64,000 nucleotides of DNA from NCBI RefSeq assembly GCF_030013595.1, contig NZ_CP122768.1; one strand, written 5' to 3'. A model generated the notes under the pieces. That model saw only the letters and a program-made list of their open reading frames with translations. It searched no databases and was not told the DNA's origin. Positions within the stretch are counted from its first letter, which is position 1. The number at the start of each line of letters is the position of its first letter. The DNA is from Escherichia coli. Its GTDB lineage: Bacteria; Pseudomonadota; Gammaproteobacteria; Enterobacterales; Enterobacteriaceae. Position numbers and translations under genes: made by a program. Below, piece after piece: positions 3,181 through 54,824 of the stretch.

Positions 3181-3795
3181 CTATCGAAAGAGTGGTTTAA
3201 CCGCGACAGGAATTAACAGTTGTGATTGCCATTGCGCCAGCGTTAAGCGAGCCAGTTCACCCAGTGCACGGTAGAAAGGGTGTTCTGCTTTTTCGATAAA
3301 AACGTCAAGAAAACGTGTTGACCACGGAAAAAGGTGCCATGCCAGCAATTCTTCGCATTCTGTCTGGCGACCATTCTCCGCCAACCACGCAGCCATCAAC
3401 AGCAGTGAACCAAAATGATCTTCCGGTTCGTTTTGCTTCATTTCAAACTGAATGCCTTTCTCGCGCATCCACTGACGAAGTGCCAATGTTGAATCGCCAA
3501 ACAGCACAGATTCGCGATCCAGCCAGACCGACCCCCACGGCGGTGATGGCAGAGCCCACGGACCGACAAACAAACGCTGCCAGGCCTGGGCGCGAGTCTC
3601 TTCACTCTGTGCCTGAAAAGCCGTCACCAGCGGCGCTAATGACGCTTCTGGTAGAGGCCACTGAGTTTCCCAGCCGTCACGGGTGAGTACCGCAACCAGA
3701 GGTGCGGCTTCCGCACTCTCTGGAGCGTAATAAAACAGCGCGCCCAACACGCGCGCCGCGACAGAAAAATTATCTTGCTGTGAAAAATGGGTCAT
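3181..3795 (-). CDS. dmsD: Tat proofreading chaperone DmsD
   Basis: 204 aa from MTHFSQQDNF; matches recalled DmsD sequence; synteny downstream of ynfH. Confidence 0.85.
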   Translation of the reverse strand: MTHFSQQDNFSVAARVLGALFYYAPESAEAAPLVAVLTRDGWETQWPLPEASLAPLVTAFQAQSEETRAQAWQRLFVGPWALPSPPWGSVWLDRESVLFGDSTLALRQWMREKGIQFEMKQNEPEDHFGSLLLMAAWLAENGRQTECEELLAWHLFPWSTRFLDVFIEKAEHPFYRALGELARLTLAQWQSQLLIPVAVKPLFR

Positions 3796-5300: not shown

Positions 5301-7727
5301 TTAAACCTTTTCGATCTGGACAAGATTGCTGTGCGACGGGTTTCCCTTTGCCAGCGGTGAAGGGCGGTGAGAGGTCAGAATATTGATACTGCCGCCGTGA
5401 TCGACCCGGTCACCAAACATATCCGCTTTAAGCCACGCACCTTGCCCGATGGCGGTAACGCCAGGCAGAATACGCGGAGTCACTTTTGCGGCAATCAGCA
5501 TTTCTCCATTATTGTTAAATACCCGCACGGTATCGCCATGACGGATACCGCGTGCCTGAGCATCAATAGGGTTGATCCACACCTCTTGTGGGCAGGCCTG
5601 CTGTAACACATCAATATTGCCGTAGCTGGAGTGGGTACGCGCTTTGTAGTGGAAGCCCGTTAACTGCAGTGGATAGGTTTTCCGCAGGGGATCGTCCCAG
5701 CCATCAAAACCTGGGGTATACGCAGGAAGGGGATGAATAATTTCATCTTTTTTCAATTCCCAGGTATCCGCAATCGTCGCCAGTCGTTCAGAATAAATTT
5801 CGATTTTCCCCGAAGGTGTTTTCAACGGGTTTGCCTGTGGATCTTCACGGAATGCGCGGAAAGCGACGTAGTGTTCTTCCGGGCATTTTTTCTTAAAGAT
5901 CCCGGTCGTTTTCATCTCCTCGTAGTCGGGCATCTCAGGGTTACGTTCCTTCGTTTTCGCATGGAGATATTTGATCCATTCATGCTGACTGCGACCTTCA
6001 GTAAAGGTTTGATAAACGTCTGGTCCTAAGCGTTTGGCAACTTCACTCAGCATCCAGTAGATGGGTTTGCGTTCAAATTTTGCTGAGGTTGCGGGTTGGG
6101 CGAGGATCACATAGCCCATATTCCCGGCAGATTCGTGAGAGATAAGGTCTTCTTGCTCTGTTGGCATCAGGTCGGGCAACAGGATATCGCAATACTTAGC
6201 CGAGGCAGTCATGAAGTGGTCAATGCCAACAATCATCTCGCACTTGCTGTCATCCTGAAGCACCTCATGGGTGTGATTGATGTCGCCATGTTGATTGATC
6301 AATGTGTTACTGGCGTAGCACCATAAAAACTTGATGGGGACATCCAGTTTTTCTTTTCCACGAACACCATCACGGGTCGCGGTCATTTCCGTACCGTGGT
6401 CGATGGCATCTGTCCATGTAAAGACGGAAATCTGCGTTTTAACAGGATTCTCAAGCATCGGGAACCATTCTACCCCCAGATCCCAGCTACCTTCGCGTAC
6501 ACCTGAGTTGCCGCCGTTTATGCCGACGTTACCGGTGAGAACGGAAAGCATGGCAATAGCGCGGGACGTTTGTTCGCCGTTGGAGTGTCGTTGTGGCCCC
6601 CAACCCTGACAAATATAAGCAGGTTTTGCTGAACCGATCTCTCGTGCCAACTGGATAATTTTTTCTGCCGGGATGCTGGTGATTTTTGCTGCCCATTCCG
6701 GCGTTTTAGCTATGCCGTCAGGCCCTTCGCCCAGAATATAGGCTTTATAATGCGCGTTACGTGGTGCGTTGGCGGGCAGCGTTTTTTCATCGTAACCAAC
6801 ACAATATTTGTCGAGAAATGGCTGATCGACCATGTTTTCAGTAATCAGTACCCAGGCAATCGCACAGGCCAGTGCGCCATCGGTGCCTGGGCGAATTGGC
6901 AGCCATTCATCTTCACGCCCGGCAGCAGTGTCGTTATAACGTGGATCGATGACGATCATGCGTGCGTTTGAACGTTCTCGGGCTTGCTCGACGTAGTAAG
7001 TGACACCACCGCCGCTCATCCGGGTTTCTGCCGGGTTATTTCCGAACATAACGACCAGTTTCGTATTGGCTATATCATCCGGGCTGTTGCCATCATTGGC
7101 ACCGAACATATAACTCATTGCGGCACTGATTTGAGCGGTACTGTAGCTGCCATAGCGACTGAGAAAACCACCGCAAGAGTTCATCAGACGGTACGGGACG
7201 TTCGAGTTGGTGATGTTTCCGCCATCTACGCCTGTTCCGTACAGGACATGTACAGCCTCATTGCCGTAATCTTTAAGGATCCGCCGAAGATTATCACTGA
7301 TGGTATCCAGGGCTTCATCCCAACTTATCCGTTCAAATTTACCTTCACCGCGCTTGCCGACGCGCTTCATGGGATATTTCAACCTGTCAGGATGATTCAT
7401 CCGTCGGCGGATAGAGCGCCCGCGTAAACATGCCCGAACCTGATGATTACCGTAGACGTCGTCACCTGTCGTATCAGACTCCACCCAGTACACGGTGTCA
7501 TCTTTCACATGCAAACGTAACAGACAGCGGCTCCCGCAGTTAACGGTGCAGGAACTCCAGACCGCTTTCTCTTCTACCGGTGTCTCTGCCGCTCGGACCA
7601 TTTGGGAAAATGGCAGAGTGAAAGCACTGCTTGCCAGCGCAAGACTGCCAAGTGCGGAGGTTTTCATCAGACTTCTACGGCTGATTTCAGCCTTCATGAG
7701 CGCCTCTGTGGTATGGATTTTCATCAT
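5301..7727 (-). CDS. ynfF: molybdopterin oxidoreductase catalytic subunit (DmsA paralog) with Tat signal
   Basis: 808 aa; twin-arginine motif SRRSLMK; N-terminal CxxCxxxC cluster; intact paralog of the split ynfE. Confidence 0.9.
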   Translation of the reverse strand: MMKIHTTEALMKAEISRRSLMKTSALGSLALASSAFTLPFSQMVRAAETPVEEKAVWSSCTVNCGSRCLLRLHVKDDTVYWVESDTTGDDVYGNHQVRACLRGRSIRRRMNHPDRLKYPMKRVGKRGEGKFERISWDEALDTISDNLRRILKDYGNEAVHVLYGTGVDGGNITNSNVPYRLMNSCGGFLSRYGSYSTAQISAAMSYMFGANDGNSPDDIANTKLVVMFGNNPAETRMSGGGVTYYVEQARERSNARMIVIDPRYNDTAAGREDEWLPIRPGTDGALACAIAWVLITENMVDQPFLDKYCVGYDEKTLPANAPRNAHYKAYILGEGPDGIAKTPEWAAKITSIPAEKIIQLAREIGSAKPAYICQGWGPQRHSNGEQTSRAIAMLSVLTGNVGINGGNSGVREGSWDLGVEWFPMLENPVKTQISVFTWTDAIDHGTEMTATRDGVRGKEKLDVPIKFLWCYASNTLINQHGDINHTHEVLQDDSKCEMIVGIDHFMTASAKYCDILLPDLMPTEQEDLISHESAGNMGYVILAQPATSAKFERKPIYWMLSEVAKRLGPDVYQTFTEGRSQHEWIKYLHAKTKERNPEMPDYEEMKTTGIFKKKCPEEHYVAFRAFREDPQANPLKTPSGKIEIYSERLATIADTWELKKDEIIHPLPAYTPGFDGWDDPLRKTYPLQLTGFHYKARTHSSYGNIDVLQQACPQEVWINPIDAQARGIRHGDTVRVFNNNGEMLIAAKVTPRILPGVTAIGQGAWLKADMFGDRVDHGGSINILTSHRPSPLAKGNPSHSNLVQIEKV

Positions 7728-7784: not shown

Positions 7785-8810
7785 TTATATTTTTTCGATC
7801 TCGACCAGATTAGTGTGCTGCGGGTTTCCCTTCGCCAGTGGTGAAGGGCGCAGAGTGGTTAGCGTATTCACACAGCCGCCATGGTCGATTTTATCGCCAG
7901 ACATATTGGCCTCGTGCCAGGCTCCCTGGCCCATAGCGCTAACCCCAGGGAGAATGCGTGGTGTTACTTTGGCTGGTAGCCGAACTTCGCCACGATGGTT
8001 AAACACCCGCACCATATCGCCGTTGGCAATCCCACGTTTCTGTGCATCTATAGGGTTGATCCACACCTCCTGACGGCAGGCTTCCTTCAGGACATCAATA
8101 TTGCCGTAGGTCGAGTGGGTACGGGATTTGTAATGGAAACCAAACAGTTGCAGTGGGAAGGTTCTACGTTCAGGGGAGTCCCAGCCTTCAAAGGTTGAGG
8201 CATAAACTGGCAGTGGGCTTATCACTTCATCTTTTTCCAGTTCCCAGGTACGGGCAATTTCCGCCAGCTTGCTGGAATAAATTTCAATCTTACCGGAAGG
8301 CGTTTTAAGTGGATTTGCCTCGGGGTCGTCACGAAATGCTTTGTAGGCGACAAAATGACCATTGGGATCTTTACGCTTATAGATACCCATTTTTTTCAGT
8401 TCGTCGTAAGACGGTAACGCCGGATCTTTGGCAAGCATTTTGGCGTACAGATGTTGTAACCATTGTTCCTGCGTGCGACCTTCTGTGAACTTTTGATAGA
8501 CGTCAGGTCCAAGACGTTTCGCGACTTCACTCAGGATCCAGTAAATCGGTTTGCGTTCGAATTTTTCGCTGGTGACTGGCTGAAGGAAAATGAGATATCC
8601 CATGTTACCTGCGTAGTCGTTAGGAATAATATCTTCCTGCTCAACGGTCATCAGGTCTGGCAGCAGAATGTCGGCATATTTTGCCGATGAGGTCATAAAG
8701 TTTTCGATGACCACAATCATTTCGCATTTCGATTCGTCCTGCAGAATTTCATGCGTTTTGTTGATGTCAGAATGCTGATTAACCAGGGTATTTCCCGCGT
8801 AGTTCCAGAT
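7785..8810 (-). pseudogene. ynfE: ynfE C-terminal fragment (gene split by insertion at 8811)
   Basis: In-frame ynfE sequence from codons I-W-N-Y (8799-8810) to stop at 7785; ORF track upstream extension 8811-8951 is element DNA read in the wrong context. Confidence 0.85.
8801..8810. repeat. left copy of 10-bp direct repeat AGTTCCAGAT flanking the ynfE insert (att core or target duplication)
   Basis: Identical 10-mer at 18242-18251; both copies encode ynfE residues IWN. Confidence 0.8.
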
Positions 8811-8876
8811 GGACTCCACTGTCAGACGGATGGACGGACTTGAAGTAGTTGACTCAACGCTACTTAAGGTCCTGAT

Positions 8877-10485
8877 ATGACTGACATTAACTATGATAAT
8901 ACTGTATATCCATCCAGCTCTTTCTCTGGGTCTCCCTATCTGTATGGGCAAGTCTACACCTCAAGTCCTGACACAAGGCTGACACAAATCAATCTACTCA
9001 GCGTAGCTAAGCCTCAGTTAGTCCGTAGAGCCAATGGTCGATATACTATCCGCTTCAGACTCAAGGGACAGACCACACCGTTTCTTTCAGTATCGACCCG
9101 AAGCACAGACAGGAGAGTAGCCACAATGCGTCAGAGAGAGCTTGCAGCCACAGCTAAGGCCTTCATGTTGGATAGGCCTGAAGTCTCACTACAGGAGCTT
9201 ACAGAGCATCTCCGGTCTATGGCTGAGCAGTTCCTGACAGACGCTAGTGACGATTACTGGAATGGACTTGAGGTCGCTACTTTGGTGGACGAGAAGTCCA
9301 ACCTGAAGGAGCTAGCCGCTACGCAAGCCTTGAGTCTGGACCAGCAGAAGGGCATAAGGTTAGCGCTTGAAGTCCTGACCGCAGCACAGCAGAGGGTAGA
9401 TACTGGTGATACGTCCAGTCTAATCAAGCTGATTGGTGGTGGCGTAAGCCAGCTTACTGATGGAGATGACAATAACCTTACTAATAACTCAACTATATGC
9501 GACTCTACGTTGATTCTGAGGAACGAGCAGGGGGTCAGCCCGCAAGTATTCACGAGAGAGCGCCAACCATCTGTAGTTTTTTCAAGCCTAGTGTCCTCAC
9601 TGCTGGCTGAGAAGGTCCAGACCCTGAAGTCCTCCAGCTACAAGGACCTGTCGTCCTCACTGAATACCGTCTCTCGGTTTCTGCCTGAAGATATGGACCT
9701 GATGTCCCGCTCTGAGTGGCTGGCAGTGAGGGACGCTATGCTGGCTGCTGAGGTGAGACCATCGACAATCAACAAGCTGCTGACCAAAGCGAAGATGTGT
9801 CTCGATTATGGCCTGATGAATGGGCAACTTGAGGGCCGCAACCCTATTGAACGGATGAAGCTGACCAAGGATACCGACTCCAAGCGCAGAGCGTTCACAG
9901 ACGAGGAGCTGGAGAGACTTCTGGTCCGTGTTGAGGCTGAGTATCAGTTCACACGACACACGGCTCACACGACCTCTGAGGCCCGTAGATGGGCGTCTCT
10001 GGTGTCTGTGGTCACTGGCGCGAGGTCTGCTGAGGTCTGCCACCTGACTAAACGTGACGTTGTAACCTTGGACAATGGACTGGTCTGTATCGACATCAAT
10101 GAAGATGGGGACGGGAAGTCTGTGAAGAACAAACATTCAGTCCGACTTGTGCCGTTAACCGATGGGGCCTGTGGTTTCAGCCTGAAGTCCTTCCTCAAAT
10201 GGGTAGACACTCAGCCTGCTGATGGTCCCCTCTTTGGTATGACTCCGAGTGCCTACTCTAGTTGGTTTAACTCTAGGGTCCTGACTGAGGCCCTAGGAGA
10301 CGCTGAGAACGTTTCTCCACAGTCTGAGACATTGGCTGGCGACCCGAATGAAAGAGCGTGGAGTCAATCTGGTGGACGCTCAAGGCATCTTAGGTCACAG
10401 CAGTCAGTCCATTACGTATGACCTGTACGGGAAAGGACACGCTGTTGGTAGGCTGGCTGAGGTGCTGAAGACAGCTTTACTTTAA
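8877..10485 (+). pseudogene. tyrosine recombinase/integrase, apparently frameshifted near 10297-10330
   Basis: N-terminal arm-binding-like segment (GRYTIRFRLKG...STRSTDRRVA); catalytic domain residues in frame A up to 10421; conserved HSLRHWLATRM...LGHSS...YDLYGKGH C-terminus is in the +1 frame ending at 10485. Confidence 0.65.
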
Positions 10486-10644
10486 GTAGGAAGACCCAAG
10501 GTGGAGACCATATACGGCTTGATGGTTGAGACCTTGGGTCACTGAAGTCTGACTGAAGTTAGGGAGGGTGATAATAATCATAATCCCTCCTGACTATAGG
10601 CCCACTGGTTCGCCTTCGGCTGTCCGACTCTAAGTCTGTCTGTG

Positions 10645-10776
10645 GTCTTATTTAAACTGGTTCCCTAACTCAGGTCCTCCAACTTGGTGTCTTATTTAAA
10701 CTGGTTCCCTAACTCAGGTCCTCCAACTTGGTGTCTTATTTAAACTGGTTCCCTAACTCAGGCCCCTCCAAATTTC
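10645..10776 (+). repeat. 44-bp tandem direct repeat, about 2.7 copies (candidate iterons/origin or regulator binding array)
   Basis: Unit GTCTTATTTAAACTGGTTCCCTAACTCAGGTCCTCCAACTTGGT at 10645-10688 and 10689-10732, third copy diverges after about 30 bp. Confidence 0.8.
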
Positions 10777-10792
10777 GTTGTCTGTCAGCGAC

Positions 10793-10818
10793 TTAAATAT
10801 CCCCTCACCTTAGAAGAG
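10793..10818 (+). promoter_or_regulatory. phage single-subunit-RNAP-type promoter P1 (class A, CCCCTCAC upstream)
   Basis: TTAAATATCCCCTCACCTTAGAAGAG; T7-supergroup -17..+6 architecture, predicted +1 G at 10813. Confidence 0.55.
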
Positions 10819-10833
10819 TTTAGGGTTCAGACC

Positions 10834-10857
10834 CTTAACTATCACCTTAGGAGAGAC
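10834..10857 (+). promoter_or_regulatory. phage single-subunit-RNAP-type promoter P2 (class B, AACTATCAC upstream)
   Basis: CTTAACTATCACCTTAGGAGAGA; predicted +1 G at 10850; 45 bp upstream of ORF 10902. Confidence 0.55.
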
Positions 10858-10901
10858 GGGCCGTCCTCCACCCAATCAAAACCTTAAGAGGAGGACCATA
10901 C

Positions 10902-11402
10902 ATGGCTATTAAAATTCAGTGCTACACCGAGTCCGACAATGCGGCTTTCTTCGGTGACGATTCCGACCTCCAGCACCAGCTACCAGCACCGACATATGAC
11001 GAACCTAAGGCCCGCACAGGTAAGCCTCCTGTGGTCATCGACAACCGGGCTGTCCGTGCGTGGCTGATTGAGACTGGGTGTCTCTCCTATACGCAGCTTG
11101 TTGAGGCGTACCCGTGGGCTGACGATGTGTTCACAGGACTCTCACGGGCTACCAGTGGCGCTGTCGGTGCTGGACTCCCGGTATCTAAGGCGTACCTGTT
11201 CTCTGCCTTATATGGCACCAACGACATCTTCTCCCGTAACACAGCCAAATCCTACGCTGACATCACTGGGCGTTCACCGTCTCCTCGCTACCTGCGCCAC
11301 GTCAATAGCGTGCTTCAGGCTACGGCTGTGAATCTGGCTAAGGTTCTGAAGGACCGAGGGGATTTCACATGGTGGGATTACAACGATCAGTGCCTGTCCT
11401 GA
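10902..11402 (+). CDS. hypothetical protein, first gene downstream of P1/P2
   Basis: 166-aa ORF with strong RBS AAGAGGAGG; no family recognised. Confidence 0.6.
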   Translation: MAIKIQCYTESDNAAFFGDDSDLQHQLPAPTYDEPKARTGKPPVVIDNRAVRAWLIETGCLSYTQLVEAYPWADDVFTGLSRATSGAVGAGLPVSKAYLFSALYGTNDIFSRNTAKSYADITGRSPSPRYLRHVNSVLQATAVNLAKVLKDRGDFTWWDYNDQCLS

Positions 11403-11424
11403 GAGCCGCGCCAGCTCTGGGCTG

Positions 11425-11448
11425 GAATACCCCCTCACTATAGGGACA
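11425..11448 (+). promoter_or_regulatory. phage single-subunit-RNAP-type promoter P3 (class A; T3-like CC at -11/-10)
   Basis: GAATACCCCCTCACTATAGGGACA; 13/13 match to T7 consensus from -9 to +4 (CTCACTATAGGGA). Confidence 0.7.
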
Positions 11449-11451
11449 CCC

Positions 11452-11477
11452 CCTAAACTATCACTATAGGGGGGACC
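11452..11477 (+). promoter_or_regulatory. phage single-subunit-RNAP-type promoter P4 (class B)
   Basis: CTAAACTATCACTATAGGGGGGACC; TCACTATAGGG core. Confidence 0.65.
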
Positions 11478-11712
11478 AACCTTGCCTCTGCTTCTGATGC
11501 GTCAGAACACGCGAGGTCCTCCCGACATTAAGTATTCTCCTAAGTAATCAAGGCCCGTGACCGCCTCTGACAGACCTCCTGTATCGACCTCCAGCTCGTT
11601 AGCGTTCTTTAGTCGTCTCGGTTAGTAGGTAACCGGCTCATTTAAACCGTCTGGTCTGTTTCCTCCGGCTCTACAAAAATAATGTCCATCATTTTTTAAT
11701 GGACACTATCGT

Positions 11713-12360
11713 ATGAAACACCGGACCTGGATCACTGAAGCTTTACGTCTTCACTTTGAAGAACATTTACCCCGGGTTGTGGCCGGGCGTCGCCTGGGTG
11801 TACCAAAATCAACAGTTTGTAGTATGTTCGTGCGCTTTCGGAGAGCTGGCCTTTCGTGGCCTTTGCCCGCAGGCATGTCGGAGCAGGAACTTGATGCCTG
11901 CCTTTACGGACAATTTTCCACGGTACCAGTCGTACGTCCTGAAAGCACCGTTATATCCGAAGCCCCCGTGGTAAAAAAACGTCCCCGGCGGCCCAACTTC
12001 CCTTATGAGTTTAAAATCGCCTTAGTGGAGCAGTCACTGCAGCCCGGAGCCTGTGTGGCGCAGATCGCCCGGGAAAACGGAATCAACGATAACCTGCTCT
12101 TCAACTGGCGCCATCAATACCGGAAAGGTGGCCTGCTGCCTTCCGGAAAAAATATGCCGGCACTGCTTCCCGTGACGTTAACGCCGGAGCCGGATAATAA
12201 AATCCCGGCCCCCGCACAGGAACCAGAGCAGATAAATACACCGTCCGACAGTCTGTGTTGTGAGCTGGTTCTGCCGGCCGGAACTCTCAGGCTTAAAGGT
12301 AAACTGACGCCGGCGTTATTACAGACACTTATCCGCGAAATAAAAGGGAGCAGCCACTGA
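11713..12360 (+). CDS. IS66 accessory protein (orf1/TnpA-like)
   Basis: 215 aa, first ORF of IS66 triad; identical to copy-2 ORF. Confidence 0.8.
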   Translation: MKHRTWITEALRLHFEEHLPRVVAGRRLGVPKSTVCSMFVRFRRAGLSWPLPAGMSEQELDACLYGQFSTVPVVRPESTVISEAPVVKKRPRRPNFPYEFKIALVEQSLQPGACVAQIARENGINDNLLFNWRHQYRKGGLLPSGKNMPALLPVTLTPEPDNKIPAPAQEPEQINTPSDSLCCELVLPAGTLRLKGKLTPALLQTLIREIKGSSH

Positions 12361-12707
12361 TGATATCTCTCCCTGCAGGTTCGCGTATCTGGCTGGTTGC
12401 AGGTATCACCGATATGCGAAATGGCTTTAACGGCCTGGCATCAAAAGTTCAGAACGTCCTGAAGGATGACCCGTTCTCCGGACACCTGTTCATCTTCCGC
12501 GGACGCCGGGGTGACCAGATAAAAGTGTTGTGGGCTGACAGTGACGGACTGTGCCTCTTCACCAAACGCCTGGAGCGGGGCCGCTTCGTCTGGCCAGTCA
12601 CCCGTGACGGCAAGGTGCACCTTACTCCGGCTCAGTTATCCATGCTTCTTGAAGGTATCAACTGGAAGCACCCGAAACGAACGGAACGCGCTGGAATCCG
12701 CATATAA
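12360..12707 (+). CDS. IS66 Orf2 (TnpB-like)
   Basis: 115 aa, overlapping start with preceding stop (ATGA); typical IS66 orf2. Confidence 0.8.
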   Translation: MISLPAGSRIWLVAGITDMRNGFNGLASKVQNVLKDDPFSGHLFIFRGRRGDQIKVLWADSDGLCLFTKRLERGRFVWPVTRDGKVHLTPAQLSMLLEGINWKHPKRTERAGIRI

Positions 12708-12726
12708 CCCGTTGTAAAGTGAGGAT

Positions 12727-14298
12727 ATGGACACCTCACTTGCTCATGAGAACGCCCGCCTGCGGGCACTGTTGCAGACGCAACAGGACACCATCCGCCA
12801 GATGGCTGAATACAACCGCCTGCTCTCACAGCGGGTGGCGGCTTATGCTTCCGAAATCAACCGGCTGAAGGCGCTGGTTGCGAAACTGCAACGTATGCAG
12901 TTCGGTAAAAGCTCAGAAAAACTTCGTGCAAAAACCGAACGGCAGATACAGGAAGCACAGGAGCGAATCAGCGCACTTCAGGAAGAAATGGCGGAAACGC
13001 TGGGTGAGCAATATGACCCGGTACTGCCATCCGCCCTGCGCCAGTCTTCAGCCCGTAAACCGTTACCGGCCTCACTTCCCCGTGAAACCCGGGTTATCCG
13101 GCCGGAAGAGGAATGCTGTCCTGCCTGTGGTGGTGAACTCAGTTCTCTGGGATGTGATGTGTCAGAGCAACTGGAGCTTATCAGCAGCGCCTTTAAGGTT
13201 ATCGAAACACAACGTCCGAAACAGGCCTGTTGCCGGTGCGACCATATCGTACAGGCACCAGTACCTTCAAAACCCATTGCACGCAGTTATGCCGGAGCGG
13301 GGCTTCTGGCCCATGTTGTCACCGGGAAATATGCAGACCATCTGCCGTTATACCGCCAGTCAGAAATATACCGTCGTCAGGGAGTGGAGCTGAGCCGTGC
13401 CACACTGGGGCGCTGGACAGGTGCTGTTGCTGAACTGCTGGAGCCGCTGTATGACGTCCTGCGCCAGTATGTGCTGATGCCCGGTAAAGTCCATGCTGAT
13501 GATATCCCCGTCCCGGTCCAGGAGCCGGGCAGCGGTAAAACCCGGACAGCCCGGCTGTGGGTCTACGTCCGTGATGACCGTAACGCCGGTTCACAGATGC
13601 CCCCGGCGGTCTGGTTCGCGTACAGTCCGGACCGGAAAGGTATCCATCCACAAAATCACCTGGCCGGTTACAGCGGTGTGCTTCAGGCCGATGCTTACGG
13701 TGGTTACCGGGCGTTATACGAATCCGGCAGAATAACGGAAGCCGCGTGTATGGCTCATGCCCGGAGAAAAATCCACGATGTGCATGCAAGAGCGCCCACC
13801 TACATCACCACGGAAGCCCTGCAGCGTATCGGTGAACTGTATGCCATCGAGGCAGAGGTCCGGGGCTGTTCAGCAGAACAGCGTCTGGCGGCAAGAAAAG
13901 CCAGAGCCGCGCCACTGATGCAGTCACTGTATGACTGGATACAGCAACAGATGAAAACACTGTCGCGTCACTCAGATACGGCAAAAGCGTTCGCATACCT
14001 GCTGAAACAGTGGGATGCACTGAACGTGTACTGCAGTAATGGCTGGGTGGAAATCGACAACAACATCGCAGAGAACGCCTTACGGGGAGTGGCCGTAGGC
14101 CGGAAAAACTGGATGTTCGCGGGTTCCGACAGCGGTGGTGAACATGCGGCGGTGTTGTACTCGCTGATCGGCACATGCCGTCTGAACAATGTGGAGCCAG
14201 AAAAGTGGCTGCGTTACGTCATTGAACATATCCAGGACTGGCCGGCAAACCGGGTACGCGATCTGTTGCCCTGGAAAGTTGATCTGAGCTCTCAGTAA
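12727..14298 (+). CDS. IS66-family DDE transposase (Orf3/TnpC)
   Basis: 523 aa with leucine-zipper-like N-terminus, CxxC...CxxC zinc motif and DDE region. Confidence 0.85.
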
Positions 14299-14582
14299 AT
14301 ATCAATACGGTTCTGACGAGTCGCTTACGTTAGTAGCTCGTCTACTCACTACATTGGCTTAAGTCTATCACCGCTCACCATCTGGAGTCCTTACAGCTCG
14401 TCCTGACATGCGGTCTCACCTTATATGCACATGGAGAACATGGCCACTCCAGACCAACACTAATCAACATTAACCCTATTCACTTTCGTTAAGCATTTTT
14501 TGGTGGGTCCGTTTGGATGCATTGAATAGGTGCGGACTCCACGTGGAGACAGAAAGTGCTTTACTAAAGGAGCATCCTTTAT

Positions 14583-14972
14583 ATGACTATTAAATCCATC
14601 GTTATCAACGGTAAGACCATCCTGTCTACACCTAACGCCATCAATGAGGGTGTCTGGTTCGACATGCTTGAGGTCCATCAAGCTGCTGGCTTGCCTGCTA
14701 ACAAGACGTTCTCACAGTGGCGCAGCCGACAGTCTCGTGCATTAGAAGAGGCTGGAGAGGTGTCGTTTGACAGTGTACAGAAGACCCTGTGTGGCAGCTT
14801 TGTGGCAGTGCTGGCCTACCTTATGTGGGCGGACCTTACTCTCTGGCTGGCGGTGGTTCGTTACGTTGCGTCTGAGACTATCGGCGTCCTGCCTGACCGC
14901 TTCAAGTCTATCGACGGTGATAACCCCGAGTTAGAAATGTCAGAGGATAACAGCGAGTGGGAGGACTTCTAA
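14583..14972 (+). CDS. KilA-N domain protein (short)
   Basis: 129 aa; N-terminal motif WFDMLEVHQAAGLPANK...WLAVVRYV resembling KilA-N; strong RBS AAGGAG. Confidence 0.55.
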   Translation: MTIKSIVINGKTILSTPNAINEGVWFDMLEVHQAAGLPANKTFSQWRSRQSRALEEAGEVSFDSVQKTLCGSFVAVLAYLMWADLTLWLAVVRYVASETIGVLPDRFKSIDGDNPELEMSEDNSEWEDF

Positions 14973-14973
14973 G

Positions 14974-15714
14974 ATGACCATGAGCCAGCTTGAAGCATTA
15001 CCTATCGTCATCGAGGGTCATTCATTCATCTGCAACGACCAGCGCATGTGGAACCTGAACGAGATTCACCGAGTGTTAGGTCTTCCAGCAAGCAAGATGC
15101 CGTCTGAGTGGAATAACAAGATTCGCACACAACTTGACCGCTCCGGAAATTTCCGGACCGTGAATGGTGACGGCGGTGGTACATGGGCGACCGAGGCTGG
15201 GACCGTGGCTTATGCTATGTGGGTCTCTACAGATTTCTACCTGATGGTCATCAATGCTTTCATCTTTATGCGTAACGACGCAATCGTCCGAGAGCGTGTA
15301 GCGGTCAAACAGGCTGACGAGGCTAACGCTAACCTCTCCATCGCAGCACCTAAGGCAGACATCTTTGACGGTCGTCTGACCAATGGTGGCTCTGTTCCGT
15401 GGAACTGGGCGTGTAAATCTTTGGGTCTTGCCCCGATGAAACTGAAAGAGGGCTTGAAGCGCTCCGGTAAGTTCGTCCAGAAGTGGAACCCTGACAGTTA
15501 CGCCGACGAGCTTCGACCTCAGGAGAAGGCGTTCAGTATTGGACTATTCGTCACTAAGTCAGTCATGGGTAAAGACACATGGCAGGTGACAGCTAAAGGC
15601 TACGCATGGATGCAGGGGAACGCCCAGAAGTGGAGAGAGCTAATAGCTGATGGTGACCGCTTAAAGGCTGCTGAGCGTCGAGCACAGAAGCGTCTTAACC
15701 GTGGAGGTAAGTAG
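14974..15714 (+). CDS. KilA-N domain protein with C-terminal extension
   Basis: 246 aa; MWNLNEIHRVLGLP...NGDGGGTWATEAGTVAYAMWVSTDFYLMVI typical of KilA-N; start 2 nt after preceding stop. Confidence 0.6.
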   Translation: MTMSQLEALPIVIEGHSFICNDQRMWNLNEIHRVLGLPASKMPSEWNNKIRTQLDRSGNFRTVNGDGGGTWATEAGTVAYAMWVSTDFYLMVINAFIFMRNDAIVRERVAVKQADEANANLSIAAPKADIFDGRLTNGGSVPWNWACKSLGLAPMKLKEGLKRSGKFVQKWNPDSYADELRPQEKAFSIGLFVTKSVMGKDTWQVTAKGYAWMQGNAQKWRELIADGDRLKAAERRAQKRLNRGGK

Positions 15715-15716
15715 TC

Positions 15717-15941
15717 ATGGCTATGATTGACCCTCGTACACCTATCGGCAAAGCGACCCTTCGTTACCGTGGTCTGCCTACACGTCATCTGCTGTCCCTG
15801 CTGAGACTTGGAGTCGAAGACCCCGAACGCCCGTACTACAGTCGAGACGAGCTAATAGCTATGTTGGTGGACCGTGATTTAGACAATCAGTTACGCCGAG
15901 CCTTTGCGAAGTCTAGCGCAGCTAGGGAACTGGAGTCCTGA
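15717..15941 (+). CDS. hypothetical protein
   Basis: 74-aa ORF, start 3 nt after preceding stop, same strand. Confidence 0.45.
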   Translation: MAMIDPRTPIGKATLRYRGLPTRHLLSLLRLGVEDPERPYYSRDELIAMLVDRDLDNQLRRAFAKSSAARELES

Positions 15942-16146
15942 ACCTTATGGGGCAGAAAAACCGCCGCATAAACCTATCGTCTGCTGACCGAAGTTTCGAC
16001 GCATTGAGCCAGACGGAAAAGTTTTCCTGCTGGTAAACCACCTTAATTTAAACACCTTTTGAGAATGACCGATGCGGGGAGACCCGTAGGCATAACTGTG
16101 TCTGCGATACCGATAGTTCTCACCTTCTCAATAGGAGTACTACCTT

Positions 16147-16638
16147 ATGTTATTCAACAACAACGACTGGAAACTATCAGTCACCGACATCAATCCCTAT
16201 GAAAATACTGTGAGTCTGGACGGTCAGTCCTATCCGCTGTCTCTGGCGATTAAGACCCTGATTCCGGGCTACCTGTCAGGCTTACCGTCCACCAGCCGCG
16301 AGGCGATGGAGTTACTGGAAGCTCTGGCTGAAGCTGGCGTGTCCATTGGCAACTTCTTCAGTAATGACCTGATGACCGCCTATGGTCGCCGCCAGCAGAA
16401 CAAGCGAGCCGAAGCTGAGCGTATTGCTAAAGAGCAGCGCATTCAGGCTGAGCGTATGCGTGAAGAGAACATGACTGATGCAGAGTGGCAGAAAGAGCTA
16501 CAGCGCCGTGAACAGGTCAAAGCTGAACGCCGGACCTATGGTGAGCACCTCCGCAGTGCTACCCATTCCGCTGGGCGCTCCCGTGCTTCTATGGTCGCTG
16601 ACATTGAGTCCACGGACAACTGGATGGACAGCCTCTAA
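16147..16638 (+). CDS. hypothetical charged coiled-coil protein (scaffold-like?)
   Basis: 163 aa; RBS AGGAG; C-terminal K/R/E-rich helical segment. Confidence 0.5.
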   Translation: MLFNNNDWKLSVTDINPYENTVSLDGQSYPLSLAIKTLIPGYLSGLPSTSREAMELLEALAEAGVSIGNFFSNDLMTAYGRRQQNKRAEAERIAKEQRIQAERMREENMTDAEWQKELQRREQVKAERRTYGEHLRSATHSAGRSRASMVADIESTDNWMDSL

Positions 16639-16704
16639 GACACAGACACACAAGTGGTCCTGACCTGATGTCGGGACCCACAGTATCCAAACTAATTTAG
16701 GAGA

Positions 16705-17700
16705 TTGATTATTATGACGATTAAAGACGCTTTCCAGTTCGGCATTGAGCCAGTACGTATCAGCGACACCGACAACATTCAGATTAACGAAGGTTTGCCA
16801 ACTAACGCAGACCCGCAGGTCTATGCCCTCCAGTTAGCTAAGACGGTTAAGGCTATGCTGAACGGTGTACTTAAAGACGCTCAAGAGAACATCCCGTTCC
16901 CTGTAGAAGTCCTGCCGACCCGCAATAGCCTGCCTACTCCAATCATTGCTCACACTCTGGCTGATCGCTCTGTGGTCGTTCCTGTCCGTGGTGGTAAGCG
17001 ACCTGAAGTCGTGACCGTTCCGTCTGGACAAGAAATCGTGGTCGAACCAATCGAGCAGGCTATTCTCATCTCTGAGCAGACCAAGCTCTGGGACGCCAAG
17101 TCATCCACCGGATTCACTCAGGGCACACTTCAGCAGGACGCTATGAACATCTGTGAGAATGTGGTCCGTACCATCAACGCTCGCATGGTCGACGTTCTGG
17201 AGTCCTCCAAACTGTTGAAGACCGTAGAGCTGCCAGTCCTGACTGGAAGCCTGACCACTAAGGCAGACGCTATCATGGACGCTCTGTTTGAGAACACCGA
17301 GTCCTCTTTCGGCTCTGAAGTGTCTGATTACGGCATCATCGCCCATGAGTCCCAACTGAAAGCGCTGTCCCGTCTGGCAGCTAAACAGGGCTTCTCTGGT
17401 GGAGACGCTATCGTGGATATGCTGGGTACCGACATCGCCTATTACAACGGTGAAGACAAGGGTGTATTCATGCTGGCTAAACGCTTCACGGCCCTGAGCT
17501 TCGGCTGCTTCCGTCACGACGGTGAGAATATTACGGTCGTCCTTTCACGTGATGGCGACTCTCAGTCCCACGACTTGGAAATCCTCGGTAAAGTGTTCGT
17601 TGTCGCTGAAGCTGCTACGACCATCAAGATGGGCACTGGCTCAGCTACTGCCGTCCTGCCTGTAGTCAAACGCCTGAAGTTCACCAAGACCGAAGCGTAA
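16705..17700 (+). CDS. hypothetical 331-aa protein (possible virion/structural protein; unverified)
   Basis: Long ORF with RBS AGGAG directly downstream of coiled-coil ORF; no motif recognised. Confidence 0.5.
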   Translation: MIIMTIKDAFQFGIEPVRISDTDNIQINEGLPTNADPQVYALQLAKTVKAMLNGVLKDAQENIPFPVEVLPTRNSLPTPIIAHTLADRSVVVPVRGGKRPEVVTVPSGQEIVVEPIEQAILISEQTKLWDAKSSTGFTQGTLQQDAMNICENVVRTINARMVDVLESSKLLKTVELPVLTGSLTTKADAIMDALFENTESSFGSEVSDYGIIAHESQLKALSRLAAKQGFSGGDAIVDMLGTDIAYYNGEDKGVFMLAKRFTALSFGCFRHDGENITVVLSRDGDSQSHDLEILGKVFVVAEAATTIKMGTGSATAVLPVVKRLKFTKTEA

Positions 17701-17844
17701 GACCAATGGGTAAGAGGTAAGTCTGGACTGAATATCAGCAGGACTTCAGGTGGTGGCCTGTCACTGTGATTAACTAACTACGGTCTGGACCAATGGTCTG
17801 GGCCTTATTACTGGTATGGTAGTATACAGGCGAAGGAGGACCCA

Positions 17845-18000
17845 ATGTCTATGACTTCCGCAGACCTAAGGTCCCTCCTGACTCTGGTCTATAAACTCGT
17901 GTTCCTCTCTGTGGGTCTCTACATGGTTCTCTCTGGTCGACTCGGTGTGGATGTGTTCGACACTCTGTCTAAGGCTGTGGGTGGACTTCTAGGTCCTTAG
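17845..18000 (+). CDS. small hydrophobic protein (51 aa, one predicted TM helix)
   Basis: ATG 17845 with RBS GAAGGAGG; LVFLSVGLYMVLSG hydrophobic core; below ORF-track length cutoff. Confidence 0.4.
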   Translation: MSMTSADLRSLLTLVYKLVFLSVGLYMVLSGRLGVDVFDTLSKAVGGLLGP

Positions 18001-18241
18001 GTTTGGACTCACAGTGGGACCGATGATTTCTGACAGAAAAATGTGAATGACCATCTAATACATTAAGCCAGCAGACTTCCCCCCATAGTCCCGCCTCAAG
18101 TCCAGACCGAGGCCACCGGGGGTCCTGACCAGCCGTCTAGACATCCCGTCTAATGACACAAGTCTGGCACAAAGCCTGACACAAAGTCCTTGACTCAATG
18201 CAGGACCTCAGGCCTACTAAGGGTCCGCTTCAAGTCCTTGA

Positions 18242-18251
18242 AGTTCCAGAT
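18242..18251. repeat. right copy of 10-bp direct repeat AGTTCCAGAT
   Basis: Identical to 8801-8810; ynfE sequence resumes here. Confidence 0.8.
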
Positions 18252-19652
18252 GAACTTAATGGGCACATCCAGTTTATCTTTGCCGCGGACGCCGTCGCGG
18301 ATTGCCGTCATTTGCGGGCCATGATCGATAGCATCCGTCCAGCTGAAGCAGGAGATTGACGTTTTGACCGGATTATCCAGCACCGGTAGGCGTTCTATGG
18401 TAATGGTATAGGTCGATTCACGCGCGCCACTATTCCCGCCGCTGATGCCGACATTGCCCGTCAAAATAGGCAACATAGCAATAGCGCGTGCGGTCAGCTC
18501 ACCGTTTGCCTGGCGTTGCGGCCCCCAGCCCTGGCAGATATAAGCGGGTTTTGCTGTGCCAATTTCACGCGCCAGTTTGATGATACGGTCCACCGGGATA
18601 CCGGTAATTTGCGAAGCCCACTGCGGCGTTTTCGCTGTTTTATCGTCACCTTCACCAAGAATATAGGCTTTATAGTGACCATTTTTTGGTGCATCTGCGG
18701 GTAAGGTTTTTTCGTCATAGCCGACGCAGTATTTATCAAGAAAAGGTTGATCAACGAGATTTTCGTTAATCAATACCCAGGCAATACCCGCAACCAGCGC
18801 GGCATCGGTGCCCGGGCGAATAGGAAGCCATTCGTCTTCACGACCGGCAGCCGTATCGGTATATCGCGGATCGATAACAATCATTTTTGCGTTCGATTTC
18901 TCGCGCGCTTTTTCAAGAAGATAAGTGATGCCACCACCGCTCATGCGGGTTTCTGCCGGGTTGTTACCAAACATCACGACCAGCTTGCTGTTTTCAATAT
19001 CCGTGGTGCTGTTGCCATCATTACTGCCGTAGGTGTAGGGCATGGCACAGGAAATTTGCGCGGTGCTGTAGGAGCCATACTGGTTGAGTGAGCCGCCGTA
19101 GCAGTTCATCAGGCGTTTGACCGCCGAGGCGGATGGCGAAGAGCGGGTCATATTGCCGCCAACAATCCCCGAAGAGTACTGAATATATACAGCCTCATTG
19201 TCATATTGTTCGACGGTTTTTTTCAGGCTACTGGCGATAGTATCCAGGGCTTCATCCCAGCTAATCCGTTCGAATTTGCCTTCGCCGCGTTTGCCCACGC
19301 GTTTCATTGGGTAATTCAAGCGGTCGGGATGATTAATACGCCGACGGATGGAGCGACCGCGCAAACAGGCGCGTACTTGATGATTGCCATACTCATCGCT
19401 GCCGGTGTTGTCAGTTTCCACCCAGGTCACTTCATTATCTTTAACATGCAGACGAAGTGCACAGCGGCTACCACAGTTGACGGAACAGGCACCCCAGACC
19501 ACTTTCTCGCTGGCCTGTTGTACTGCTGCCGCTGCACTGCGCAGGGTGAACGGTAAAGAAAAACCGCCTGCAGCCAGCGCCAGAGAACCTATCGCGGTAG
19601 ATTTAACGAGTGTTCTGCGGCTGATGCCCACCATTTGTTCATTTTTGGACAT
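18243..19652 (-). pseudogene. ynfE: ynfE N-terminal fragment (Tat signal, catalytic subunit) ending at insertion junction
   Basis: 470 ynfE codons from MSKNEQMVGISRRTLVKS to IWN at 18243; ORF then runs 16 codons into element DNA to a stop at 18195. Confidence 0.85.
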
Positions 19653-25801: not shown

Positions 25802-25831
25802 GTAAGCGACTCGTCAGAACCGTATTGATAT

Positions 25832-27403
25832 TTACTGAGAGCTCAGATCAACTTTCCAGGGCAACAGATCGCGTACCCGGTTTGCCGGCCAGTCCTGGAT
25901 ATGTTCAATGACGTAACGCAGCCACTTTTCTGGCTCCACATTGTTCAGACGGCATGTGCCGATCAGCGAGTACAACACCGCCGCATGTTCACCACCGCTG
26001 TCGGAACCCGCGAACATCCAGTTTTTCCGGCCTACGGCCACTCCCCGTAAGGCGTTCTCTGCGATGTTGTTGTCGATTTCCACCCAGCCATTACTGCAGT
26101 ACACGTTCAGTGCATCCCACTGTTTCAGCAGGTATGCGAACGCTTTTGCCGTATCTGAGTGACGCGACAGTGTTTTCATCTGTTGCTGTATCCAGTCATA
26201 CAGTGACTGCATCAGTGGCGCGGCTCTGGCTTTTCTTGCCGCCAGACGCTGTTCTGCTGAACAGCCCCGGACCTCTGCCTCGATGGCATACAGTTCACCG
26301 ATACGCTGCAGGGCTTCCGTGGTGATGTAGGTGGGCGCTCTTGCATGCACATCGTGGATTTTTCTCCGGGCATGAGCCATACACGCGGCTTCCGTTATTC
26401 TGCCGGATTCGTATAACGCCCGGTAACCACCGTAAGCATCGGCCTGAAGCACACCGCTGTAACCGGCCAGGTGATTTTGTGGATGGATACCTTTCCGGTC
26501 CGGACTGTACGCGAACCAGACCGCCGGGGGCATCTGTGAACCGGCGTTACGGTCATCACGGACGTAGACCCACAGCCGGGCTGTCCGGGTTTTACCGCTG
26601 CCCGGCTCCTGGACCGGGACGGGGATATCATCAGCATGGACTTTACCGGGCATCAGCACATACTGGCGCAGGACGTCATACAGCGGCTCCAGCAGTTCAG
26701 CAACAGCACCTGTCCAGCGCCCCAGTGTGGCACGGCTCAGCTCCACTCCCTGACGACGGTATATTTCTGACTGGCGGTATAACGGCAGATGGTCTGCATA
26801 TTTCCCGGTGACAACATGGGCCAGAAGCCCCGCTCCGGCATAACTGCGTGCAATGGGTTTTGAAGGTACTGGTGCCTGTACGATATGGTCGCACCGGCAA
26901 CAGGCCTGTTTCGGACGTTGTGTTTCGATAACCTTAAAGGCGCTGCTGATAAGCTCCAGTTGCTCTGACACATCACATCCCAGAGAACTGAGTTCACCAC
27001 CACAGGCAGGACAGCATTCCTCTTCCGGCCGGATAACCCGGGTTTCACGGGGAAGTGAGGCCGGTAACGGTTTACGGGCTGAAGACTGGCGCAGGGCGGA
27101 TGGCAGTACCGGGTCATATTGCTCACCCAGCGTTTCCGCCATTTCTTCCTGAAGTGCGCTGATTCGCTCCTGTGCTTCCTGTATCTGCCGTTCGGTTTTT
27201 GCACGAAGTTTTTCTGAGCTTTTACCGAACTGCATACGTTGCAGTTTCGCAACCAGCGCCTTCAGCCGGTTGATTTCGGAAGCATAAGCCGCCACCCGCT
27301 GTGAGAGCAGGCGGTTGTATTCAGCCATCTGGCGGATGGTGTCCTGTTGCGTCTGCAACAGTGCCCGCAGGCGGGCGTTCTCATGAGCAAGTGAGGTGTC
27401 CAT
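25832..27403 (-). CDS. IS66-family DDE transposase (Orf3/TnpC)
   Basis: 523 aa identical to 12727..14298 product. Confidence 0.85.
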
Positions 27404-27422
27404 ATCCTCACTTTACAACGGG

Positions 27423-27770
27423 TTATATGCGGATTCCAGCGCGTTCCGTTCGTTTCGGGTGCTTCCAGTTGATACCTTCAAGAAGCATGGATAACTGAGC
27501 CGGAGTAAGGTGCACCTTGCCGTCACGGGTGACTGGCCAGACGAAGCGGCCCCGCTCCAGGCGTTTGGTGAAGAGGCACAGTCCGTCACTGTCAGCCCAC
27601 AACACTTTTATCTGGTCACCCCGGCGTCCGCGGAAGATGAACAGGTGTCCGGAGAACGGGTCATCCTTCAGGACGTTCTGAACTTTTGATGCCAGGCCGT
27701 TAAAGCCATTTCGCATATCGGTGATACCTGCAACCAGCCAGATACGCGAACCTGCAGGGAGAGATATCAT
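27423..27770 (-). CDS. IS66 Orf2 (TnpB-like)
   Basis: 115 aa identical to copy 1. Confidence 0.8.
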   Translation of the reverse strand: MISLPAGSRIWLVAGITDMRNGFNGLASKVQNVLKDDPFSGHLFIFRGRRGDQIKVLWADSDGLCLFTKRLERGRFVWPVTRDGKVHLTPAQLSMLLEGINWKHPKRTERAGIRI

Positions 27771-28417
27771 CAGTGGCTGCTCCCTTTTATTTCGCGGATA
27801 AGTGTCTGTAATAACGCCGGCGTCAGTTTACCTTTAAGCCTGAGAGTTCCGGCCGGCAGAACCAGCTCACAACACAGACTGTCGGACGGTGTATTTATCT
27901 GCTCTGGTTCCTGTGCGGGGGCCGGGATTTTATTATCCGGCTCCGGCGTTAACGTCACGGGAAGCAGTGCCGGCATATTTTTTCCGGAAGGCAGCAGGCC
28001 ACCTTTCCGGTATTGATGGCGCCAGTTGAAGAGCAGGTTATCGTTGATTCCGTTTTCCCGGGCGATCTGCGCCACACAGGCTCCGGGCTGCAGTGACTGC
28101 TCCACTAAGGCGATTTTAAACTCATAAGGGAAGTTGGGCCGCCGGGGACGTTTTTTTACCACGGGGGCTTCGGATATAACGGTGCTTTCAGGACGTACGA
28201 CTGGTACCGTGGAAAATTGTCCGTAAAGGCAGGCATCAAGTTCCTGCTCCGACATGCCTGCGGGCAAAGGCCACGAAAGGCCAGCTCTCCGAAAGCGCAC
28301 GAACATACTACAAACTGTTGATTTTGGTACACCCAGGCGACGCCCGGCCACAACCCGGGGTAAATGTTCTTCAAAGTGAAGACGTAAAGCTTCAGTGATC
28401 CAGGTCCGGTGTTTCAT
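27770..28417 (-). CDS. IS66 accessory protein (orf1/TnpA-like)
   Basis: 215 aa identical to copy 1. Confidence 0.8.
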   Translation of the reverse strand: MKHRTWITEALRLHFEEHLPRVVAGRRLGVPKSTVCSMFVRFRRAGLSWPLPAGMSEQELDACLYGQFSTVPVVRPESTVISEAPVVKKRPRRPNFPYEFKIALVEQSLQPGACVAQIARENGINDNLLFNWRHQYRKGGLLPSGKNMPALLPVTLTPEPDNKIPAPAQEPEQINTPSDSLCCELVLPAGTLRLKGKLTPALLQTLIREIKGSSH

Positions 28418-28501
28418 ACGATAGTGTCCATTAAAAAATGATGGACATTATTTTTGTAGAGCCGGAGGAAACAGACCAGACGGTTTAAATGAGCCGGTTA
28501 C

Positions 28502-51143: not shown

Positions 51144-54824
<3,681 letters not shown>

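Follow-up and report, generated by a model that had tools for sequence, protein, structure and literature searches.

Why would an Escherichia coli chromosome carry, in close pairs, sites that read like promoters for the RNA polymerases of T7-like phages? Such phages, the textbook case of a strictly lytic and self-sufficient virus, serve widely in therapy and biotechnology. The sites lie at 10793-11477 of a 64,000-nucleotide stretch of contig NZ_CP122768.1 (assembly GCF_030013595.1); this whole stretch is the window, and coordinates refer to it unless another record is named. A preliminary description had proposed four promoters there, P1 to P4, in two tandem pairs that each combine a T3-like recognition class (class A) with a second one (class B). 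We find that the four sites belong to a small island inserted in the gene ynfE, and that P2 to P4, together with a weaker P1, are likely promoters for the RNA polymerase of a helper phage of the T7-like K1F group (genus Kayfunavirus) in a satellite-like island. We also lean, if only somewhat, towards the wider view that the island is one of an unrecognised family of satellites, minimal in size (about 6.6 kb) and equipped with a capsid gene, that depend on virulent T7-like phages and in which stacked promoters would set or widen the helper range.

The four promoter-like sites

All four sites are present where the preliminary description had put them and read as it described. Each is given below from -17 to +6 of the T7-group promoter architecture, with the presumed start site (+1).

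P1, 10796-10818, + strand: AATATCCCCTCACCTTAGAAGAG, presumed +1 at 10813, weak class A-like site
P2, 10833-10855, + strand: CCTTAACTATCACCTTAGGAGAG, presumed +1 at 10850, class B (K1F type), CTTA variant
P3, 11426-11448, + strand: AATACCCCCTCACTATAGGGACA, presumed +1 at 11443, class A (GW1/Ro103C3lw type)
P4, 11452-11474, + strand: CCTAAACTATCACTATAGGGGGG, presumed +1 at 11469, class B (K1F type) consensus

In each pair a class A site is followed by a class B site, the distance from start to start being 37 nt for P1-P2 and 26 nt for P3-P4, and the T3-type C at both -11 and -10 is found in P1 and P3. The sites have the architecture of T7-group promoters, with the 23-bp consensus from -17 to +6, the core CACTATAG at -7 to +1 and a purine (G) at the start, and their specificity blocks at -12 to -8 are those of known phages (ACTAT in EcoDS1, phiYIO1-1 and K1F; CCCT in Ro103C3lw and GW1). 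P3 and P4 carry CACTATAGGG, and P1 and P2 carry CACCTTAG, a variant known at the phage promoter phi4. In P1 the block at -12 to -8 is CCCCT, CTTA occupies -4 to -1, and the start reads GAAGAG.

The degenerate core TCACYWTAGRRR matched four times in the window, exactly at P1 to P4 and always on the + strand, while the expectation from shuffled sequences was 0.16 matches and none of 100 shuffles reached four. The class B string AACTATCACNNTAG matched twice, against 0.17 expected by shuffling. The class A string alone is weaker evidence and not compelling, with two matches against 0.65 expected and two reached in 16 of 100 shuffles. Position weight matrices were then made from real phage promoters, the class A matrix from those of phage vB_EcoP-Ro103C3lw. 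P2, P3 and P4 scored 24.6, 25.7 and 30.2 bits, respectively, and the background maximum in the 54.5 kb outside the island was 11.5 bits with the class A matrix and 8.9 bits with the class B matrix. A search of 10400-11700 against Rfam gave no match, and terminators, like sigma-70 promoters, were not enriched in a scan for both.

The sites are also placed as promoters would be. All four lie on the + strand between open reading frames (ORFs), in the same direction as every ORF of the island. P1/P2 are 50-100 nt upstream of the ORF at 10902-11402, with a Shine-Dalgarno sequence and an ATG 50 nt past P2, and P3/P4 come directly past the stop codon of the same ORF. In at least 15 related islands the sites are likewise intergenic and co-oriented with the downstream genes. 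Alignments of the islands show the promoter cores as invariant blocks amid variable flanks: the core of P2 is unchanged across 9 islands, and that of P4 across 13 aligned island sequences.

Phages that use the two promoter classes

Comparison with phage promoter sets showed that both classes correspond to real promoters of Kayfunavirus phages. Class B (AACTATCAC) equals the curated consensus that K1F-type Kayfunavirus phages, EcoDS1 and phiYIO1-1 among them, have for their promoters. Phage phiYIO1-1, which is K1F-like with an endosialidase tail spike, is the one phage that shares DNA with the promoter region; it has 10 class B promoters with the consensus C/A-C-T-A/T-A-ACTATCACTATAGG. Apart from a 32/32 hairpin match described below, P4 is identical at 19 of 19 positions to several phiYIO1-1 promoters. 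In the record of EcoDS1 (genus Kayfunavirus), the depositors annotate the class B sequence as phage promoters, from phi1 to phiOR, and the phi4 promoter of this phage, CCTAAACTATCACCTTAGGGATG, has the same CTTA variant as P2. A 30-mer with the class B promoter matched 216 records over at least 80% of its length. It was 100% identical in all 40 phage records among the matches listed, which include K1F, EcoDS1, CR44b, PE3-1, ST31 and Vec13. A blastn search in distant mode of 10400-11720 against phages returned only the 32-bp hairpin and the end of an insertion sequence (IS); the promoter link was found by the motif scans.

Class A (CCCTCAC) matches the 10 promoters of the Kayfunavirus phage vB_EcoP-Ro103C3lw (TTAAACCCTCACTATAGGRA), of which phi10, AATATACCCTCACTATAGGGAGA, is close to P3. 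The 31-mer of phi10 is identical in 9 records of the same phage group among the matches listed, with Cronobacter phage GW1, Shigella phages SFP20 and SFP21B and Enterobacter phages among them, and T3 is the next best match at 92.6%.

To relate the two classes to the polymerases, we aligned the specificity loops, which read RLNLMFLGQFRLQ in T7, RLDMIFLGQFRLQ in T3, RLDLMFLGTFRLQ in vB_EcoP-Ro103C3lw (class A) and RLNLMFLGSFNLQ in phiYIO1-1 and EcoDS1 (class B). In T7 RNA polymerase, N748 reads positions -11 and -10 of the promoter, the change N748D confers T3 specificity, and R756 reads position -9. At the positions of N748 and R756, the class A phage and T3 have D and R, and both class B phages have N and N. 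The promoters of the two classes differ at -10 (C in class A, T in class B) and at -9 (C and A). Thus, the polymerases differ where the promoters differ, since residues 748 and 756 contact -11 to -9, the positions of the class difference. As far as the sequences tell, the C at -11 and -10 is meaningful, and the cognates of class A are Kayfunavirus phages with T3-like determinants rather than T3 itself. The T3-like label therefore stands for the determinants at -12 to -8, but not for the cognate phages, which are of the GW1/Ro103C3lw type.

The two pairs had also been taken for a duplicated and diverged module. The difference between CTTA in P1/P2 and TATA in P3/P4 is real, but it mirrors the difference between the phi4 promoter and the consensus promoters in the phages. 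Because the phage's own promoters differ in the same way, the difference between the pairs need not be divergence after a duplication.

To our knowledge, a single phage has a single polymerase specificity, and the three Kayfunavirus genomes that we scanned contain no adjacent promoters of two classes; stacking is thus a property of the islands. Read most simply, stacking would open one set of genes to the polymerases of different helpers. The genome termini of the class A and class B phages are nearly identical, so that doubling of the promoters may be the main change needed to use both phages.

The ynfE island and its relatives

The suggestion that two specificities could serve more than one helper phage gains support from the related islands. 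They keep the layout of the ynfE island, and the site closer to the downstream gene is nearly always of class B, while the partner is variable (islands are given by locus number):

L001, L003 and L004: class A (CCCCT, ACCCT or TCCCT) with class B
L005, L015, L016 and L018: GCACT with class B
L006 (three pairs) and L092: CACCT with class B
L091: ACCCA with class B
L010, L017 and L093: single sites, one of the ATTAT type in each
L012 and L082: two single class B sites

Related islands thus retain class B and exchange or lose the partner class, a pattern that would suit use by several helpers. The distant island L084 (44% identity in the capsid protein) has tandem pairs of GACCCA-CACTATAG and AGGTA-CACTATAGGGAGA at its positions 3373-3428 and 6444-6574. 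The second member of these pairs is identical at 31 of 31 positions to annotated promoters of Citrobacter phage CR8 (11 such places), and the GACCCA-CACTATAG member has no match among sequenced phages. The still more distant L086 (capsid protein 35% identical) has three T7-group-like sites, TAAACCC(C/T)GACT(A/T)TAG, two of them in tandem. In L006 (6400-14330 of that record, E. coli Jnd12) the island is a larger variant with three promoter pairs and two ORF166-type genes, and its extra genes after the capsid gene include one for an 863-aa transglycosylase-domain protein. In relatives with an ATTAT-type first promoter, an unrelated 122-aa ORF stands in the place of ORF166, the ORF that follows P1/P2, as if promoter and first gene were swapped together as one cassette.

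The island occupies 8801-18252 of the window, which is E. coli chromosome; it measures about 6.7 kb without the IS and splits ynfE into 7785-8951 and 18195-19652. It is a discrete insertion, absent from other strains, with an integrase gene and with the attachment (att) core AGTTCCAGATG on both flanks inside ynfE. Its features, other than the four promoter sites and the elements that resemble phage genome ends, are the following.

8801-8811: left att core AGTTCCAGATG, an 11-bp direct repeat common to 18242-18252, at the ynfE/island junction
8877-10421, + strand: tyrosine integrase, 514 aa (PHROG 1, E = 6e-24; annotated as site-specific integrase in relatives)
10902-11402, + strand: ORF166, the first gene past P1/P2, with a strong Shine-Dalgarno sequence, AAGAGGAGG
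11484-11513, + strand: stem-loop TTCTGA-TGCG-TCAGAA with outer pairs, in the leader about 15 nt past the presumed start of P4
11629-14328, + strand: IS66-family insertion of 2.7 kb (tnpA, tnpB, tnpC), with the 8-bp target duplication GTTAGTAG at 11621-11628 and 14329-14336
14583-15941, + strand: variable module of three ORFs (129, 246 and 74 aa), the 246-aa product being KilA-N/antirepressor-like (PHROG 129 and PHROG 63, E about 1e-11)
16147-16638, + strand: 163-aa coiled-coil protein, candidate scaffolding protein, always directly upstream of the capsid gene
16705-17700, + strand: predicted HK97-fold major capsid protein, 331 aa (AlphaFold2 and Foldseek)
17845-18000, + strand: small hydrophobic ORF, 51 aa, read from the sequence
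18242-18252: right att core, a direct repeat of 8801-8811

After the integrase gene comes a non-coding stretch of 480 bp that ends in P1/P2. ORF166 has no match in PHROGs, NCBIfam, PADLOC or Pfam, and its homologues are found only in closely related islands. Its AlphaFold2 model has a predicted local distance difference test score (pLDDT) of 53, too low to use; the predicted helices of residues 49-82 resemble a helix-turn-helix, at a model confidence too low for reliance. The stem-loop past P4 may be a leader or processing hairpin; the RNAalifold consensus of 12 islands has 10 pairs, 2 of them with compensatory changes, which is weak support for it. The IS66-family element begins about 150 bp past P4 and is missing from the relatives L001, L004 and L005, and a second copy, 99.96% identical, lies at 25802-28504. 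Insertions of IS66 or IS21 are also seen in L015, L018, L084 and L091. At the position of the variable module, relatives have AP2, Rha, KilA-N or unknown genes.

The 331-aa product has no match by sequence in PHROGs, NCBIfam, PADLOC, Pfam or the PDB sequences, and no sequence similarity to gp10 or gp9 of the helper type. On the evidence of its structure model, however, it is an HK97-fold capsid protein. The AlphaFold2 model, made from 39 homologues, has a pLDDT of 85.7 and a predicted template modelling score (pTM) of 0.79; Foldseek matched it to 217 chains of the PDB at E <= 1e-3, and the best 50 of the 217 are all phage capsid or encapsulin shell proteins. The 163-aa product, with only faint matches to T7_gp14 and DUF6971, probably has a scaffolding role, judging by its position and composition. 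The 51-aa ORF, with comparable small ORFs in L010, matched no family in PHROGs, NCBIfam or PADLOC. In PHROGs, NCBIfam and Pfam no RNA polymerase, replication, portal, terminase or tail gene was found for the island, which is thus without the genes of an autonomous virion and has signals compatible with a helper. Elsewhere in the window, 51118-63525 holds large co-oriented ORFs (641, 533, 484, 350 and 859 aa, and others) at a GC content of 0.56-0.60; this region looks like the morphogenesis region of a lambdoid prophage and is unrelated to the island.

Three elements of the island resemble the ends of phage genomes.

10562-10591, + strand: GC-stemmed hairpin, with a 32/32 match to phiYIO1-1 40046-40077
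10645-10776, + strand: three tandem 44-bp direct repeats upstream of P1, of 100%, 100% and 80% identity in a repeat search
18055-18125, + strand: segment like the left terminus of the Kayfunavirus terminal repeat, aligned with the phage repeat starts TCTCACAG...CCCCATAGGCCC...AGTCCAGACCAAAGG

In Kayfunavirus genomes the counterpart of the hairpin sits between phiOR and gene 19.5. Its orientation in EcoDS1 is that of the island, and it is kept in related islands. Compared with EcoDS1 and the island, phiYIO1-1 has the loop inverted, which suggests an element that flips from phage to phage. Going by position, the 44-bp repeats would be the counterpart of the short repeats that the phages have to the right of their concatemer junction. 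In some relatives (L017 7087-7585; L010 1700-2100) two or three repeated units containing TTGACA replace them, and these units look like the early promoters for the host polymerase that T7-like genomes have at their left end. The segment at 18055-18125 recurs in islands whose integrases and att sites are different (L010 and L012), its blastn match to L007 24-54 is weak (E = 0.053), and it is a candidate site of end formation or packaging by the helper. Together, hairpin, repeats and terminal segment resemble the concatemer-junction region of the phages and may act as such in the island.

The module of scaffold-like and capsid genes occurs in 309 of 5,426 complete E. coli genomes (5.7%) at 80-100% identity, always in the chromosome and in one or two copies per genome; the tandem P3/P4 block is found in 32 genomes. 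The module occupies several integration sites (ynfE, and beside the tRNA-Gly gene next to the ETT2 type III secretion locus), other members adjoin tRNA genes, and relatives occur in Citrobacter, Shigella, Rouxiella and others. Diverse members (80-100% identity) share the same site in different strains, which implies that islands have been acquired repeatedly. Contigs of 6.4-7.3 kb from Logan and ENA are integrated copies with host flanks, not free or packaged island DNA. An earlier study that used TIGER mapping (Mageeney et al. 2020, PMC7192596) counts ynfE among the genes whose integrity an integrative element controls; in the passages of that paper that we retrieved, the element is only mapped, with no mention of promoters, a capsid gene or a helper phage. 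Our literature search, incomplete in coverage, returned no satellite of T7-like phages and no stacking of phage-polymerase promoters in such an island, and an earlier description is possible.

From these results, we propose how the island might work. When a helper infects the cell and makes its polymerase, the island genes would be transcribed from the co-oriented P1 to P4. Each position would stack a class A site (CCCCT at -12 to -8, for a D/R polymerase) beside a class B site (ACTAT, for an N/N polymerase), and either kind of Kayfunavirus could then activate the island. P1/P2, in the non-consensus CTTA form that the phage uses at its DNA-metabolism promoter phi4, would drive ORF166, and P3/P4, in the consensus TATAGGG form of the strong phage promoters, would head an operon that ends in the scaffold-like and capsid genes. 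By analogy with the behaviour of class II and class III promoters in T7, the CTTA form may be the weaker or the earlier one, and early/late control by the promoter pairs, as the preliminary description had suggested, is plausible. Replication, too, could be primed by these transcripts, in the manner of T7 origins. What the island contains would fit dependence on such a phage: a capsid protein, the phage hairpin and an end like the terminal repeat are present, and a polymerase gene is missing. As part of the same family view, to which we give somewhat better than even chances, islands without transcription, replication and packaging genes of their own would plug into the helper through mimicry of its promoters and genome ends, and would be mobilised by it.

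Competing explanations and comparison with known systems

Several observations weigh against helper-driven promoters in a mobile satellite. P1 scores only 9.9 bits with the class A matrix, within the background range, and its equivalent in L015, L016 and L018 has C at -1, which may mean that the first site of class A type is in decay or no longer active. P1 is credible only because the homologous position in the relatives L003-L005 has a better copy, AATAATCCCTCACCTTAGGAAGT (19.0 bits); its block is also kept in the alignment of related islands (alignment A4). Furthermore, no phage that uses the GCACT, ATTAT or GACCCA class as its promoter set was found in the phage database or IMG/VR (in exact-pattern scans of IMG/VR and in BLAST, GCACT and ATTAT gave only isolated scattered matches, and BLAST gave none for GACCCA), so that some partner sites are without a known cognate polymerase. 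In the copy studied here the IS66-family element separates P3/P4 from the genes that they would drive. The integrase gene lies upstream of the promoters, which leaves its expression on infection unexplained. Finally, matches of the capsid gene in IMG/VR are prophage-region calls from isolate genomes, with no virion-derived contig among them.

Could the tandem promoters serve mainly as a replication origin of the T7 type, with transcripts of the helper RNA polymerase as primers for the helper's DNA polymerase? In T7 the primary origin has the tandem promoters phi1.1A and phi1.1B, and phiOL and phiOR are secondary origins. Such a role, compatible with gene expression, is possible, and we hold it doubtful as the main one. 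It would agree with the fact that the island has no recognisable replication gene in PHROGs, NCBIfam or PADLOC, that phage promoters, tandem or single, are annotated at the primary origin in the records of T7 and T3, and that the tandem arrangement is the rule in these islands. However, no AT-rich segment like that of the T7 primary origin lies past either pair (GC content 0.52 for 10001-12000), an origin would not need a systematic difference of specificity within a pair, and the sites are placed as gene promoters, with translation signals shortly past P2. The sites might still act as a secondary origin, as phiOL and phiOR do.

An unlikely alternative is that the island is an anti-phage device, whose promoters sense infection and switch on interfering proteins (ORF166, the KilA-N/antirepressor-like protein, a decoy capsid) with no transfer of the island. 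The module after P3/P4 varies among islands (AP2, Rha, KilA-N or unknown genes), as in defence hotspots, and PADLOC gave a weak match to PDC-S22 (E = 2e-4). Against this idea, the scaffold-like and capsid genes, the integrase and att sites, the terminal-repeat-like end and the hairpin are kept across islands with different integrases and sites, a persistence that points to packaging and transfer, and the diverse members at the same site imply repeated acquisition. Known satellites also interfere with their helpers, so the anti-phage and satellite readings overlap.

We reject as highly improbable that the island is a decayed T7-like prophage with its promoters as relics without function. Some T7-like phages are generally known to carry integrases, LUZ100 being an example in the passages retrieved on it, and the extra genes of L006, including that for the transglycosylase-domain protein, would agree with such an origin. 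But pairs of two classes are unexpected from one phage with one specificity, the capsid protein is unrelated in sequence to gp10 of the T7 group, the size of about 6.6 kb and the gene order are kept down to 35% capsid identity, and the promoter cores are invariant while the flanks vary. Chance matches or host sigma-70 promoters can be dismissed: although P1 taken alone and the class A string count stay within what background and shuffling give, the four core matches, the scores of 24-30 bits for P2-P4 against a maximum of 11.5, the identity of P4 to phage promoters, and a sigma-70 scan of 8700-11700 without enrichment (3 found against 2.4 expected) together with the conservation of the cores refute such an origin for P2-P4.

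We therefore return to promoters for helper polymerases in a satellite-like island. If this is true, a parasite can detect a virus and turn it to its own use in a way that is new, by capturing the helper RNA polymerase directly and without a regulator of its own. The promoter class would predict the helper range from sequence, because it corresponds to a polymerase class, and the swapping of partner promoters between islands would record, in readable form, an arms race against the polymerase specificity of phages. Escape from such parasites may explain why polymerases and promoters diverge among close Kayfunavirus phages. In practice, therapeutic K1F-type phages may meet interference in strains with the island, and natural stacked promoters of dual specificity would be ready parts for orthogonal expression systems with phage polymerases.

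How does the island compare with known systems? We rate its promoters as of a well-known kind and, from the sequence comparisons, the island as a probable phage satellite with what would be a new activation logic. Like other promoters of the T7 group (Studiervirinae), the island sites share the 23-bp plan, with an A/T-rich part at -17 to -13, the specificity block at -12 to -8, the core and a G start. Unlike the promoters of the K1F/EcoDS1 and GW1/Ro103C3lw phages, they are chromosomal, have no polymerase gene with them and place two specificities 26-37 nt apart; compared with phage class A promoters, P3 has C instead of A at -12, and P1 deviates at -4/-3 and +2/+3. Class A shares with the T3 promoter (AATTAACCCTCACTAAAGGGAGA) the C at -11/-10 and CCCT at -11 to -8, as the class A phage polymerase shares with T3 RNA polymerase the D at the N748 position, but it has TATA instead of TAAA at -4 to -1, differs at -14 to -12 and has its best matches in Kayfunavirus, not Teetrevirus. 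The closely spaced tandem promoters recall phi1.1A/phi1.1B at the T7 primary origin; that origin, however, has a single specificity, a spacing of 75 bp and an AT-rich segment, whereas the island pairs two specificities at 26-37 bp with no AT-rich segment.

Like the satellites of the cf-PICI, P4, SaPI/PICI, PLE and PICMI types, of which PLE and PICMI are satellites of virulent phages in the passages retrieved, the island has an integrase with att sites, too few genes for a phage, and mimics of helper signals. As in cf-PICIs, it encodes its own HK97-fold capsid protein, as predicted by its model. It is not a cf-PICI itself: only the capsid and a candidate scaffold are present, with no portal, protease, connector or terminase in PHROGs, NCBIfam or Pfam. 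Unlike cf-PICIs and the other satellites, it is much smaller and has no genes for a portal, protease, small terminase subunit, head-tail connector, primase/replicase or repressor; the published size ranges that we retrieved are 7-20 kb, above the size of the island. And unlike the published satellites retrieved, its activation would be a direct use of the helper RNA polymerase, through mimicry and stacking of the helper's promoters.

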